A stretch of 64,000 nt of DNA from an uncultured Christensenellaceae bacterium (GTDB lineage: Bacteria > Bacillota > Clostridia > Christensenellales > MGBC116941), in NCBI GenBank assembly GCA_910585035.1, contig CAJUEF010000007.1, positions 1,039-65,038 on the forward strand, given 5' to 3'. The notes beneath the pieces are model-generated. The model saw nothing but the letters and a program-made list of their open reading frames with translations. It was not told where the DNA came from and ran no database searches. Positions 2,671 through 36,579 of the stretch are shown here, piece by piece (within the stretch, counting starts at the first letter, position 1; each line of letters opens with the position of its first letter). Both the position numbers and the translations under genes were made by a program.

Positions 2671-3471
2671 ATGATCGATTTGCATAAAGCATTTGAAGAC
2701 GCCAAAGCGTGGGAACTTGAGCGTCATGCAATGCGTGATGCCACAGGAGATGAAGAGTGGAGAGAAGCCAAAACTAAATTTGAAAAAGATAAAACTGATA
2801 TTTTAATGGATTATGACCAAAATAAAAACCCTGAATTTGTAACCACTGAAAAAGAAACTCAGCTGCGCTTTGTAATGCAGGTTGTCCAACAGCAAGCAAC
2901 AAATACCTTTGTAAATCTTGGACAGGATTTTACAAAAGACCCTGAACTATGGATTCAGTTTTTTGCCAGATATCCGCTATTATTTAACTTCAGGGAAAGA
3001 GAAGGAAAACATTTTGAAAAAAAAGACTTTTCTCTCAGCGCAAACGCAGAACTAATTGAAGAATGTCTTGGCGCCAACACCCCGAAAAATATTGCAGATT
3101 CTTTTATACACGCTCTCCAAAAATCCTCCGGAAAGGTTCTTGAAATCAGCAGTGAAAATGAACATCTACAATATTTAACGGTTATACGTACTTATGATAA
3201 AGCAAGCACCTTAACTATTTATCGCGCCGAGCTAAAGCTTGAGGTCTCAAAAGTAAAAACTGTGTGTGCAGGAACTCAAAAACAAAATTTAGTTATTGAT
3301 TACGACAGAACTGTTTTTGAAATAAACGATATACTTGCTTATGCTCTTTATCCTTCTCTTATGGAAACAGCCAAATCTGAGCTTGTGGCAAGACTTACTG
3401 AATTTTTCCTGCAAATGGCCAGAGAGCAGTTTAAAAAATTCGACGACTGGCTCAAAAATCCGGTAAAATAA
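2671..3471 (+). CDS. Hypothetical cytoplasmic protein (266 aa), no recognised family
   Basis: Long ORF. AAAGGGGGA RBS lies 8 nt before the ATG at 2671. No TM segment or signal peptide. First gene of a two-gene cassette. Confidence 0.65.
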   Translation: MIDLHKAFEDAKAWELERHAMRDATGDEEWREAKTKFEKDKTDILMDYDQNKNPEFVTTEKETQLRFVMQVVQQQATNTFVNLGQDFTKDPELWIQFFARYPLLFNFREREGKHFEKKDFSLSANAELIEECLGANTPKNIADSFIHALQKSSGKVLEISSENEHLQYLTVIRTYDKASTLTIYRAELKLEVSKVKTVCAGTQKQNLVIDYDRTVFEINDILAYALYPSLMETAKSELVARLTEFFLQMAREQFKKFDDWLKNPVK

Positions 3472-33022: not shown

Positions 33023-33295
33023 TTAATCATGTAAATAGCTTGCTTCCGCCATCATCTTCACTCCCACGGAAAAGCCCTTTGCAAAGGCCTCCGCCATTCC
33101 TGCCGACGTTAAATCGTAATATTCCGACAAAAAATCATTAAAATCTCCTATTAATTCCTTATCAAGCTTTCTGACAAACCTTGACTCGTACATATTTGCT
33201 TCCTTCAGCTTTTTCCTGTATTCCTTTAAAATCGGCTCGGTTTCTTCCCTCGGGCATATCTCACCATCATATAACTTCATTAATAAGCTTTTCAT
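33023..33295 (-). CDS. Hypothetical small protein (90 aa)
   Basis: ORF with an AAGGAG RBS. No motif recognised. Confidence 0.5.
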   Translation of the reverse strand: MKSLLMKLYDGEICPREETEPILKEYRKKLKEANMYESRFVRKLDKELIGDFNDFLSEYYDLTSAGMAEAFAKGFSVGVKMMAEASYLHD

Positions 33296-33425
33296 ATTAT
33301 CTGTACTCCTTATTATAGTATGAAAATATTATAATAAGATAATCTTATAATGTCAATATTATGATTTATCTTTGTGTTGACTAGGTGATGAACATATGAT
33401 AGTATGAACCTAGGAGATGAAAACA

Positions 33426-33602
33426 ATGAAAACTGAAAAGCAAAAATTTACAATTACATGTGATGAAGAGCTTTTAAATAAAATAGATGATTTTTGGTTT
33501 GAAAACAGGTTTCGCAACAGAACCCAGGCAACCTTGGAATTAATTCGCCTTGGTCTTAATGCCGCAGAGAAAGAAAAAGAAAACGCAAAAAAACCCCGTT
33601 AG
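33426..33602 (+). CDS. Ribbon-helix-helix (CopG/Arc-like) small DNA-binding protein
   Basis: ..KFTITCDEELLNKIDDFWFENRFRNRTQATLELIRLGL.. reads as a beta-strand then two helices, the RHH pattern. Start moved to the ATG 9 nt after GGAG. Confidence 0.55.
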   Translation: MKTEKQKFTITCDEELLNKIDDFWFENRFRNRTQATLELIRLGLNAAEKEKENAKKPR

Positions 33603-33620
33603 CAAGCGGGGTCTTTCTTT
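33591..33620 (+). terminator. Intrinsic terminator overlapping the stop of the RHH gene
   Basis: CCCCG-ttagcaag-CGGGG followed by TCTTTCTTT. Confidence 0.55.
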
Positions 33621-33640
33621 ACCTTTTGTTACCTTTTTTC

Positions 33641-34040
33641 TTTACCTTTCTTTTAGAAAAAAGAAAGGTAAAACCAAAGAAAACCTAATTACCGATAAAC
33701 ATATCTTTTGGTAAAAAGCCGTTTTTAACTTCAAAATGGGTATATAGGTTTTTCTTTTTAGCTCTTTTTCTTTCTTTTAGAAAAAAGAAGGGTAAAACCA
33801 AAGAAAACATGATTACCGATAAATATATTTTTTTGTATAAATCCGTCTTTAAATCTAAAACAAATATATAAGTTTTCTTTTTCAAAAAAGAAAAAGTAGA
33901 TAAATTATGATATAATAGCTTTATCCACATTTATTTTTTACCGATAAATATATTTTTTAAGGCTAAAACAAATGCAGGGTTTTCTTTTTGTTACTTTTTC
34001 TTTTTTCTAAAAGAAAAAGTAAAAGAAAAACTAAAAAAAC
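33641..34040. repeat. Tandem array of about three ~124-bp units of the hairpin element (hairpins at 33641-33672, ~33771-33789, ~33873-33894 and 33991-34022)
   Basis: TTACCGATAAA recurs at 33689, 33813 and 33938 (period 124-125 bp). ACCAAAGAAAAC..ATTACCGATAAA is shared by units 1 and 2. Each unit ends in a CTTTT/AAAAG hairpin. Confidence 0.8.
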
Positions 34041-34053
34041 AAAGGAAAAAATT

Positions 34054-35481
34054 GTGACTGATTGTAAGCTGTCTCAGGAGATGAGAATAAACGGGGCTAC
34101 CCCTGTAGAAAATTTATTTATATCAGAGTTTATGTTAAGCGCACCGGGCGACTTTGTAAAGGTCTATATTTACGCTCTTATGCAGTGCTATATGGGCATG
34201 GAATGTAACCTTGGCTCCATTGCTCACGACCTTAGCATGGATGACGAAAAGGTGGAAAGCGCATTTATGTACTGGACGAGAAAAGGGCTTTTAAAAAAGG
34301 CGGGCGGCCGTTATTCCTTTGAATCACCCAAGTCCGTGGTATATTGCGGCGCAGTATCAAAGGGAGACGCCCTTTCAGCTTACAAGGATTTTAACGCAGC
34401 CCTCTATGAAATAATGGCGGGAAGAACCTTAACCCCGGCAGACTTTGAAATGTCGTACGACTGGATTGAAATATACGGCATGAGCCGCGAATGCGTTCTG
34501 GAAATGGTGAATTATGCCGTTACGCAAAAATATAAAGCAGGAACTCGGGTCAGCTTTAACACCCTTAATAAAATGGCTATATCCTGGGTAGATATGGGAA
34601 TTACCACAGCGGATGCGGCGAGAAGCTATATAGACAGCCAGACAATCATTACCTCAGACGCAAAAGTAATTTTAAATCACTTAGGGCAGTTCCGCAATCC
34701 AACTGTGGATGAATACAAGCTGCTGGAAAAATGGGAAAAGGAATACGGCTTTAATGCCGATGCGCTTATTGCCTGCTGTTCACAAATGGTATACAGTAAA
34801 AGCCCAAGCTTTGCCCTCCTTGATAACATTGTGGAAAAATACCACGCCATAGGCGTAAACACTGCTGAGGCAATAAAGCAGGAGCGGATGCGCGGCGATG
34901 AAATGTTTAACGTCTATAAAGAGATAATCAAGAGGTGCGGCGGCTACGGCAGCGCAACAAAAGCCCAAAGAGAGCTGATAGACGGGCTTATTAAAGACGG
35001 CTTTAATAAACAGGCTTTGCTCTATGTGTGCGACCATCTTGTATCAATGGATAAAAAAGGTCTCTCCCACACAATACAGCTTGCGAAAGAGCTTAAAAGC
35101 ATGGGAATAACCGAGGAAAACGCCGTTTGTGAAGAGCTGGAAAGGCGCTCCGCTCTTAGGGAGCAGGTTAAGGAATTCCTTGAAACAGCGGGCTTTTCCC
35201 GTATTCCGAGCAAAAAGGATATGGATATGTACAGCGGCTATTTTGCTGTGTTTAACAGCCATGAAATAATGCTGAGAGCGGCGCAGCTTGCAGCACAGGC
35301 AAAGAACAAAACCCAGCATTTAAACCGTCTTTTGGAGGAATGGAAAGCAAAGGGCGTTACAGATGTGAGCCAGGCGCAGGACATTGCGCCGGAGGTTCAA
35401 AAGAAAGATGCAGAGAAAAAGGAATATATAAAGGGCGATAGAACCTATACAGACGAAGATCTTTTTGATATATTTGAATAG
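34054..35481 (+). CDS. dnaB: Replication initiation and membrane attachment protein (Bacillus-type DnaB, DnaD-like domains)
   Basis: About 475 aa, followed 9 nt later by dnaI, as in Firmicute dnaB-dnaI operons. Start uncertain: GTG at 34054 or ATG at 34081. The track start at 33988 translates the repeat element. Confidence 0.7.
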   Translation: MTDCKLSQEMRINGATPVENLFISEFMLSAPGDFVKVYIYALMQCYMGMECNLGSIAHDLSMDDEKVESAFMYWTRKGLLKKAGGRYSFESPKSVVYCGAVSKGDALSAYKDFNAALYEIMAGRTLTPADFEMSYDWIEIYGMSRECVLEMVNYAVTQKYKAGTRVSFNTLNKMAISWVDMGITTADAARSYIDSQTIITSDAKVILNHLGQFRNPTVDEYKLLEKWEKEYGFNADALIACCSQMVYSKSPSFALLDNIVEKYHAIGVNTAEAIKQERMRGDEMFNVYKEIIKRCGGYGSATKAQRELIDGLIKDGFNKQALLYVCDHLVSMDKKGLSHTIQLAKELKSMGITEENAVCEELERRSALREQVKEFLETAGFSRIPSKKDMDMYSGYFAVFNSHEIMLRAAQLAAQAKNKTQHLNRLLEEWKAKGVTDVSQAQDIAPEVQKKDAEKKEYIKGDRTYTDEDLFDIFE

Positions 35482-35490
35482 GGGTAATTT

Positions 35491-36396
35491 ATGGATAAAT
35501 ATGCCAGAATAAGAGATAATAATTTAAAAGAACAAACAAGACGCTTCGGTCAGGTAACTAATGAATTTGCCGATATAAGAGAGCTGATAACCACAAGAAA
35601 AGAGCTGCAAAGCGGCTTTGACCTTGTTTTAAGCAGCGACGAGGATTTCACAGCATACACTAAAAAAATCCGCAGTATAAACGCCGATATAAGAAAAGCC
35701 CTTGAAAAGCACGGGCTGCCTGCAAATTATTTGGAGCCTATATTCAACTGCACTATATGCGAGGATAAAGGCTATTATTATGAAAACGGTGTTACTCCAA
35801 AGCGGTGCAAATGCAATACCGACCTTGGCTTTGGCTGCTCCTTTGATGATTTTAATAAAGAGCTGTTTTCAAAGGAAAAACCGGAGGGACGAAAAACATC
35901 CCCACATGAGCATATAAGCGCCACTCTTGCCTTTGCAAAGGAATACTGTGCGAGGTTTCCAGACAACATAAAACCAAACATCTTGTTTTACGGCTCCAGC
36001 GGTCTTGGCAAAAGCTTTCTTGCATCATGTATATGCAGCGAGCTGAAAAATCGGGGATTTTTCCCCGTTAAAGTCAACGCCTTTAAGCTTATAGAGGACT
36101 TTCGGGATAAACACGTTAAAGATATTCCGTATCCTGCCGATTATTATGGATGTGACTTTCTTGTAATTGATGATATTGGCACCGAGCCTTTGTATAACAA
36201 CATCACCGTTGAATATCTCTTTGCCCTTATTAACGAACGCATTGAAAATAAAAGGGCAACTCTTTTCGTCACAAACCAGTCCTTTGAAAACTGCTGCAAA
36301 CGCTATGACGAGCGGCTGGCATCAAGAATGTTTGACAGCATGATGACAGAGCGGATTGCATTCTTTGGCGAAAATCTTAGGCTTAAGAAGAAATAA
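35491..36396 (+). CDS. dnaI: Primosomal helicase-loader ATPase DnaI (DnaC/IstB-like AAA+)
   Basis: N-terminal Cys cluster CTICEDKG..KRCKC, Walker A GSSGLGKSF, Walker B FLVIDDIG. Confidence 0.85.
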   Translation: MDKYARIRDNNLKEQTRRFGQVTNEFADIRELITTRKELQSGFDLVLSSDEDFTAYTKKIRSINADIRKALEKHGLPANYLEPIFNCTICEDKGYYYENGVTPKRCKCNTDLGFGCSFDDFNKELFSKEKPEGRKTSPHEHISATLAFAKEYCARFPDNIKPNILFYGSSGLGKSFLASCICSELKNRGFFPVKVNAFKLIEDFRDKHVKDIPYPADYYGCDFLVIDDIGTEPLYNNITVEYLFALINERIENKRATLFVTNQSFENCCKRYDERLASRMFDSMMTERIAFFGENLRLKKK

Positions 36397-36465: not shown

Positions 36466-36579
36466 ATGTATAAATGGGTTTGCCTTGTCTGTGGATACGT
36501 CCACGAGGGTGACGAGCCCCCTGAGGTTTGTCCTGTCTGCAAGGTTCCTTCGGACCAGTTTAAAAAAGCTGACGAGTAA
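36466..36579 (+). CDS. Mini-rubredoxin-type protein (37 aa), absent from the ORF track
   Basis: MYKWVCLVCGYVHEGDEPPEVCPVCKVPSDQFKKADE has two CxxC knuckles. AAAGGAGG RBS 7 nt upstream. Confidence 0.7.
   Translation: MYKWVCLVCGYVHEGDEPPEVCPVCKVPSDQFKKADE

Follow-up and report, generated by a model that had tools for sequence, protein, structure and literature searches.

A decaying tandem array of a dispersed hairpin repeat upstream of the dnaD-dnaI genes of an uncultured Clostridia bacterium

The intergenic region upstream of the dnaD-dnaI replication genes in an uncultured Clostridia genome holds three tandem units of a dispersed hairpin repeat; the array is real but decaying, an ordinary and rather old member of its repeat family. 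It probably represents the local tandem amplification of a non-coding composite hairpin repeat and not a replication element. The original prediction had described the repeats as iteron-like and had weighed a regulatory or origin-like role against a simple insertion hotspot; the last of these is the alternative that gains support. Unless a contig is named, coordinates refer to the window, which is the whole stretch of 64,000 nucleotides that was analysed. The genome (labelled G000, with contigs C1, C2 and so on) is an uncultured Clostridia MAG of 1.66 Mb and 37.6% G+C that is 88.6% complete, and the best matches of its MetRS, at 76% identity or less, come from Clostridia and Christensenellaceae MAGs.

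Recognition of the array as a dispersed repeat removes a tempting mis-annotation, namely that of iterons or an origin beside dnaD/dnaI, and illustrates how a repeat's own sequence can yield a "perfect DnaA box". The family also offers a clean example of how promoters in small Clostridia genomes become surrounded by composites and tandem arrays of an A/T-rich triplex-type repeat. Such arrays break metagenome assemblies, and many public contigs stop inside one of the two end hairpins of the array described here (H1 or H4).

Architecture of the array and its flanking genes

The region from the small gene upstream of the array to the helicase loader gene comprises the following features:

33426-33602, plus strand: small upstream gene, 58 aa in the public calls of three assemblies (61 aa from the ATG at 33417 in the ORF list)
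33587-33620: G+C-rich terminator hairpin of the small gene, AAAAAAACCCCGTTAGCAAGCGGGGTCTTTCTTT (two-strand terminator scan)
33614-33649, plus strand: pyrimidine-arm sequence TTTCTTTACCTTT (13 nt) in three direct copies (self-comparison)
33641-33684, plus strand: H1, a complete element (DNA fold -14 kcal/mol, z -3.5; nhmmer family member), with pyrimidine arm 33641-33654, loop AGAA, purine arm 33659-33672, a turn and the mirrored purine tail AAAGAAAA at 33676-33683
33685-33747, plus strand: core 1, with TTACCGATAAA at 33689
33748-33808, plus strand: junction hairpin H2, with a degenerate stem (DNA fold z -0.9)
33809-33871, plus strand: core 2, with TTACCGATAAA at 33813
33872-33899, plus strand: H3 stump, a tail-less 9-bp stem (DNA fold -5.7 kcal/mol, z -3.0)
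33902-33936, plus strand: promoter module (homology to modules at other loci)
33938-33978, plus strand: core 3, partial, sharing 21/21 and 16/18 nt with core 2, with 17 nt deleted
33979-34031, minus strand: H4, a complete element with a 13-bp stem (DNA fold -16.4 kcal/mol, z -3.7; nhmmer, minus strand)
34041-34046, plus strand: ribosome-binding site AAAGGA, before the start codon GTG at 34054-34056
34054-35481, plus strand: DnaD/DnaB_2-domain replication initiation protein, 475 aa (Pfam PF07261 in 3 stretches, E 4.6e-29)
35491-36396, plus strand: DnaC/DnaI-type AAA+ helicase loader, 301 aa (Pfam IstB_IS21 and Bac_DnaA ATPase)

The period of 124-125 bp claimed for the array was confirmed: TRF reports a period of 124 over 33639-33882 (2.0 copies, 83% matches, score 346), and the 21-mer TTACCGATAAATATATTTTTT, which is the same in units 2 and 3, recurs at an offset of +125. 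Exact copies of the marker TTACCGATAAA lie at 33689, 33813 and 33938, as predicted (at up to one mismatch the window holds 8 matches against 2.2 expected), and the motif coordinates given earlier for TGATATAAT (33908-33916) and TTATCCACA (33921-33929) are likewise all correct. Other parts of that description needed amendment. Of the three head-to-tail units, units 1 and 2 stand (83% between 33639-33758 and 33763-33882 in a self-alignment of the array units), but unit 3 is rearranged and is not a clean copy: it keeps the two core segments listed above but is 17 nt short in the core, and a 35-nt promoter module stands where the purine side of its hairpin should be. The hairpins said to close each unit exist, but they number four (H1-H4) and not three, with H2 degenerate and H3 a 9-bp stump that the family profile (nhmmer) misses. 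The left-hand tail of H2 is of pyrimidines, as in minus-type ends, and the right-hand one of purines; the right side is 26/28 identical to that of H1, and the left half matches H4 at 26/32 and H1 at 25/32, although these half-by-half comparisons, like pairwise identities within the family, are weakened by low-complexity sequence. H4, read on the minus strand, continues into the turn TAAC and a 10-nt mirrored tail, AAAAAGAAAA.

In 40 relatives, alignments of DnaD-like orthologues begin at residue 2-5 of the 475-aa form, and the public gene calls give 475 aa from GTG 34054 with nothing on the 81-aa minus-strand frame. These starts and calls identify both the Lys-rich N-terminus and the 81-aa ORF as translations of the repeat, as had been suspected; to judge from the alignments, the true start of the DnaD-like gene is GTG 34054, and two spurious ORFs are dropped from the annotation. 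The helicase loader is 38% identical to the gene that follows the DnaD-like gene in a related genus (G001). The small gene at 33426-33602 matches no Pfam family and looks ribbon-helix-helix-like by eye only. It diverges from a minus-strand DUF6809 gene in the stretch 33023-33425, which has a perfect TTGACA-17-TATAAT promoter at 33356-33328; both genes are kept in all strains seen. Downstream, between the DnaI-like and spmA-like genes, the public annotation places a 37-aa rubredoxin-type gene (PF21349) at about 36466-36579, below the ORF cut-off used in our analysis.

A genome-wide family of hairpin elements

A BLAST comparison of two array units with their own genome returned 135 matches, and iterated nhmmer searches of the whole genome resolved about 139 hairpin sites at 90 loci, 34 of which have at least two hairpins. 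By crude ORF calls, on which all of these context statistics rest, 88 of the 90 loci are intergenic, and convergent gaps, which make up 11.6% of all gaps, hold 23 of the 71 loci with genes on both sides. Contig ends account for 17 of the loci, and an assembly gap interrupts one array. The array region itself matches no Rfam family.

The elements share a fixed order: a pyrimidine arm, a 4-nt loop (AGAA), a purine arm, a turn of 3-7 nt, and a purine tail ending in C. The first loop is 4 nt long at 92 of the 139 sites and stems are mostly 13-14 bp; the second loop is 4 nt (taac or tagc) in most classes and in H4, and 7 nt, a borderline length, in H1. At two-hairpin loci the tails point inward in 14 cases and outward in none, which identifies the common larger form as a composite of hairpin-tail, core and tail-hairpin. 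Inverted similarity between the ends reaches about 5-8 nt past the tail, and family-wide conservation ends there. The sequence TTACCGATAAA is the core marker of one subfamily, other copies of which lie at C15:1276-1354 (97%) and C5:24338-24416 (90%). Even the stuttering of arms at 33614-33649 has counterparts at unrelated loci (C3:647 and C11:7422).

Amplification of composites into arrays

The array upstream of dnaD-dnaI had been described as the only place in the window where the element is arrayed. By TRF this holds, but it does not extend to the genome, where at least nine arrays with periods of 103-146 bp are built on the hairpin. Among these family arrays, that at dnaD-dnaI is the least well matched (83%). 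The arrays adjoin unrelated genes, among them V-ATPase D, Sua5, a sugar transferase, and TPM-domain, laccase-domain and MazE/AbrB-like genes. In six arrays the stem-match score is 13-16 for the end hairpins and 7-10 for the junction hairpins.

These features suggest how the arrays may have formed. The basic element is a 13-14-bp A/T-rich hairpin with a 4-nt loop; to one side of it, after a short turn, comes another block of purines, the mirror image of the purine arm. Two such elements facing each other, tails inward, flank a core of 60-200 bp to form the composite. Unequal exchange (a step that we infer, the left-half comparison of H2 being weak) or slippage between the end hairpins would then duplicate the interior of the composite, leaving perfect hairpins at the ends (H1 and H4) and hybrid, decaying ones at the junctions (H2 and H3). 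At the locus studied here, units 1 and 2 probably do no more than separate the promoter from the terminator upstream, as inert spacer.

The largest array of the family, at C9:37861-38524, is interrupted by a run of N and has at least six units of about 110 bp; the assembly probably under-counts arrays.

The promoter module and the operon leader

The third unit had been described as carrying an insertion with an extended -10 box and a DnaA 9-mer. Both motifs are present at their coordinates, but the "insertion" proves to be a recurrent promoter module, found at about six other loci in all. The module at 33902-33936, AAATTATGATATAATAGCTTTATCCACATTTATTT, is identical at 29/35 positions to C15:6966, at 27/35 to C16:32812 and at 23/35 to C8:23268, and further copies lie at C4:50288 and C2:18737 (minus strand). 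Copies elsewhere consist of TGnTATAAT, a gap of 6-8 nt and then ATCCACCTTTCTTT, the pyrimidine arm of a CCACC/GGTGG-class hairpin. In the dnaD-dnaI module the extended -10 TGATATAAT (33908-33916) is followed by an orphan, mutated pyrimidine arm, ATCCACATTTATTT, at 33923-33936, and the partner arm is gone. The first bases of this arm form the DnaA 9-mer at 33921-33929, and because the module arm is homologous and mutated, TTATCCACA can be read as TTATCCACC with one change. The DnaA 9-mer thus differs by a single base from the pyrimidine arm of the module itself, which explains the box without DnaA.

The role of the extended -10 box as the operon promoter is supported by the orthologous genes in three related genera (G001, G002 and G003), where the 220-250 bp before dnaD-dnaI include such a box 30-40 nt before the start codon. 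Here the box lies 138 nt before the GTG, and the additional ~100 nt compared with the relatives correspond to core 3 plus H4. The promoter match points to TGATATAAT as the most likely start of the dnaD-dnaI operon, which would then be transcribed with H4 in a leader of ~130 nt. H4 is the dominant structure in the predicted fold of the leader RNA, for which the whole-leader z is -1.0 against shuffles, and in the centroid fold the ribosome-binding site is free and not clearly sequestered. On these predictions the array may have a regulatory side effect on the operon, through the hairpin in the 5' leader and the single DnaA box over the start site.

Mirror tails and the triplex design

The purine tail of the element mirrors its purine arm. 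In H1, the purine arm AAAAGAAA is mirrored over 8 nt by the tail AAAGAAAA, and on the minus strand of H4 AAAAGAAAAAG is followed by the turn taac and the mirrored AAAAAGAAAA. In an exact-run test 71 of 168 tails were fully mirrored, whereas 500 swaps of tails among sites gave 42 on average and 58 at most, a count that is not a probability since family copies are related by descent; the H1 class, with its 7-nt turn, falls outside this count, and its mirror was read off separately. A cruder score gave 6.26 vs 5.97, because A-rich sequence matches anything. At least six distinct stem classes each carry a matching tail, among them AAAAGAGAAG-tagc-AAGAGAAAA (9 copies), AAAAAGAAAAG-taac-AAAAGAAAAA (8 copies) and AAAAGAAAAAG-taac-AAAAAGAAAA (8 copies).

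A mirror repeat is meaningless for Watson-Crick pairing. It is, however, the design of the purine-motif intrastrand triplexes (PIT/BoxC/TMECO; Holder et al. 2015, PMC4666352), for which the ITxF search rules specify stems of 8-15 nt and loops of 1-6 nt (PMC4666352). The family falls within these stem and loop limits, with the second loop of H1 borderline, and shows the same three-block order, in which the third block mirrors the second in the purine motif. By layout, then, the repeats follow a PIT/BoxC-type intrastrand-triplex rule in an A/T-rich form. TMECO itself was tried as a candidate and rejected: the element is A/T-rich (TACCTTTCTTTT/AAAAGAAAGGTA) and lacks the consensus CCCTCNCCC-N3-6-GGGNGAGGG-N3-GGGNGAGGG.

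A more far-reaching proposal, which we regard as very doubtful, is that the hairpin and its mirror tail fold into a DNA triplex when single-stranded, that this makes the element recombinogenic so that arrays grow without a transposase, and that, through the array and the DnaA 9-mer, expression of the helicase-loading operon responds to the state of replication or supercoiling. If this were true, triplex elements could act on neighbouring genes, and the placement of the element 2 nt past tRNA genes in the sister genus (see below) would indicate a targeted or functional role and not junk.

Alternative explanations

We give next to no credence to an iteron array or secondary origin in which the 124-bp units or the 13-nt arms would bind the DnaD-like or DnaI-like proteins and nucleate replication or restart, despite the direct repeats adjoining replication-initiation genes, the three 13-nt direct copies at 33614-33649 and a divergence of gene orientation near 33.3 kb. 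Iterons are repeats of about 17-22 bp specific to their own rep locus, whereas the units here are 124 bp long and they, the arm stutters and the arrays recur at dozens of unrelated loci. Origins combine clustered DnaA boxes with dnaA/dnaN and a skew switch; the array region holds one of the genome's 52 perfect boxes (about 20 expected) and no cluster, while clusters of at least four boxes occur on C6, C19 and C20, and the canonical rnpA-dnaA-dnaN region is on C14 (dnaA at C14:3159-4508, boxes at 3046, 3066 and 4583). Within the window GC skew follows the strand of the genes, and its cumulative value is still falling past the array, with no global minimum there. The gene pair is kept in G001, G002 and G003 without the array, and one of the 13-nt copies is deleted in other strains. 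The same observations leave the iteron- and origin-like readings offered by the original prediction without support. It is quite unlikely, too, that the operon promoter is controlled by DnaA, with the box over the predicted start allowing DnaA to repress or tune dnaD-dnaI and the C-to-A change having been selected. The box is perfect, lies 5 nt past the -10 box and overlaps the predicted start site of the operon, its chance occurrence in 450 bp is about 1.4% at a density of 52 per 1.66 Mb, and replication genes are under DnaA regulation in several bacteria (review PMC8203912). It is nevertheless a lone box; the homologous arms, TTATCCACC in C15:6966, TATCCACC in C16 and CATCCACC in C8, account for it, and it is absent before the orthologous genes in G001, G002 and G003.

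Control through the leader RNA, with H4 (and the cores) stabilising the transcript or switching its translation or attenuation, would be compatible with local amplification of a dispersed repeat but is itself rather unlikely. H4 does dominate the predicted leader structure, several copies of the family have a TGnTATAAT box before them and a ribosome-binding site after them, and of the hairpin sides situated 60 nt or less from a gene boundary, 51 are pyrimidine-arm sides and 8 are tail sides. Yet the leader as a whole folds no better than shuffles and leaves its ribosome-binding site free, the array region has no Rfam match, and the hairpins are equally common past gene ends and in convergent gaps; the mirror tail, moreover, fits a role in DNA and not in RNA, since purine-motif triplexes are not formed in RNA (PMC4666352). 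Highly improbable is an array of small-RNA genes or extra promoters, in which the TATATAG/TATATAAG box of each unit would fire a short transcript through the next hairpin: -10-like boxes do close cores 1 and 2, as at many family copies, but usable -35 or TG elements are absent and a promoter scan finds none in 33641-34031, no terminator follows the hairpins, the Rfam search is negative, and the junction hairpins are decaying.

Apart from the C14 region, C20:30036-30165, just upstream of a 503-aa gene, packs eight DnaA boxes (at up to one mismatch; four are perfect) into 130 bp; this cluster could titrate DnaA or form part of a split origin.

Comparison with known repeat systems

The closest design is that of the PIT/BoxC/TMECO elements of E. 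coli and other bacteria (PMC4666352), with which the family shares the succession of pyrimidine arm, purine arm and mirroring purine block, a multi-copy and intergenic distribution, occasional inverted pairs, the lack of a known transposase and rearrangement-prone loci. The family here differs in being A/T-rich, with A.A-T triads and one or two G.G-C in place of CCCTCNCCC/GGGNGAGGG, in its 12-14-bp stems, and in its 110-270-bp composites with a core, amplified to 103-146-bp arrays. In the literature, as far as found, only the G/C-rich relatives (BoxC/TMECO) have been studied.

Like the REP/BIME elements of Enterobacteria and Pseudomonas, the family comprises on the order of 100 short extragenic palindromes, enriched at gene 3' ends and in convergent gaps, with mosaic arrays and assembly breaks; unlike them, it has a mirror tail, no RAYT (Y1) was found here, and its arrays are head-to-tail, whereas BIMEs alternate REP orientations with set linkers. 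Correia elements (CREE, Neisseria) and promoter MITEs are likewise intergenic composites of ~100-160 bp with long terminal inverted repeats, often situated at promoters and with -10-like boxes at their ends, and terminal inverted repeats around a short non-coding core are also what the 14 inward and 0 outward pairs display. In the family here, however, neither a TA duplication nor a partner transposase was found in the incomplete assembly, the terminal repeats are palindromic with a mirror tail, and tandem amplification is common. The BOX elements of Streptococcus pneumoniae resemble it as modular non-coding Gram-positive repeats near genes with a variable tandem inner module, and BOX copies can alter gene expression; their sequence is unrelated, and their 45-59-bp modules lack the pyrimidine/purine/mirror design. 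With iterons and DnaA-box clusters the array has in common only direct repeats by replication-initiation genes and one perfect DnaA 9-mer, and it differs from them in its 124-bp units, its lack of locus specificity and the absence of clustered boxes.

Relatives, strains and mobility

The bacterial family includes only two other genera, and identity of the DnaD-like protein to relatives is 34-38%; a DnaD-like protein search for related loci gave no close relative, and the dnaD 5' end, sought as an exact pattern in JGI metagenomes, had no match. A comparison of the region in related genomes, for copy-number variation, had been proposed as a check; the array-less gene pairs of the three related genera mentioned above speak against an origin. 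The hairpin is present in G001 (91-95% identity over 40-56 nt, plus a 119-bp array) and only sporadic in three other families of the order. At the copy sites of G001 and G000, most flanking ORFs are unmatched, and where a neighbour is shared (two or three cases) it is on a different side; the comparison leans towards independent insertions.

In G001, 28 hairpin elements were sampled, and 7 of them start at a distance of exactly 2 nt from the 3' end of a tRNA gene, downstream of it (L107:3057-3095, L107:4247-4285, L108:3065-3103, L112:3038-3073, L114:3043-3076, L116:3034-3072 and L117:3010-3049); the pyrimidine arm is always on the tRNA side, and a second G+C hairpin, AATATCGCG...CGCGATATT, comes next. 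In G000, a hairpin lies within 150 nt downstream of only 1 of 36 tRNAs.

A source of mobility was sought in the 88.6%-complete assembly. PF01797 (RAYT, Y1_Tnp) had no match, while control genomes matched; transposases of the Y1, TnpB, DDE_3 and DDE_Tnp_1 types were not found, and a single rve integrase was. The copies yielded no target-site duplication and no pair of filled and empty sites.

Among strains, the ERR2059933 contig and GCA_949432835.1 have the same three units with 1-2 base changes, and no copy-number variation was seen among the three full-length public assemblies. Two more divergent strains (L078/L080) have units 1-2 with an 11-nt deletion that removes one 13-nt arm copy; in the divergent strains unit 2 is about 93.5% identical, vs 97% for the neighbouring gene. 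In one strain (L079, SRR27999959), a different repeat of ~100 nt is inserted in the turn of H2. This second repeat carries the hairpin GGTGCTGTC...GACAGCACC, has no Rfam match, and occurs in the genome studied here at C17:31-119 (L101:31-119) and C12:35488-35578 (L102, about 389-479), sitting in the turn between the pyrimidine tail and the arm of hairpin elements. Also on C12, at 35727-35823 (L102:628-724), there is a THF riboswitch (79 bits, E 6e-18) with a hairpin element directly before it, upstream of a 173-aa membrane protein that resembles an ECF S-component.
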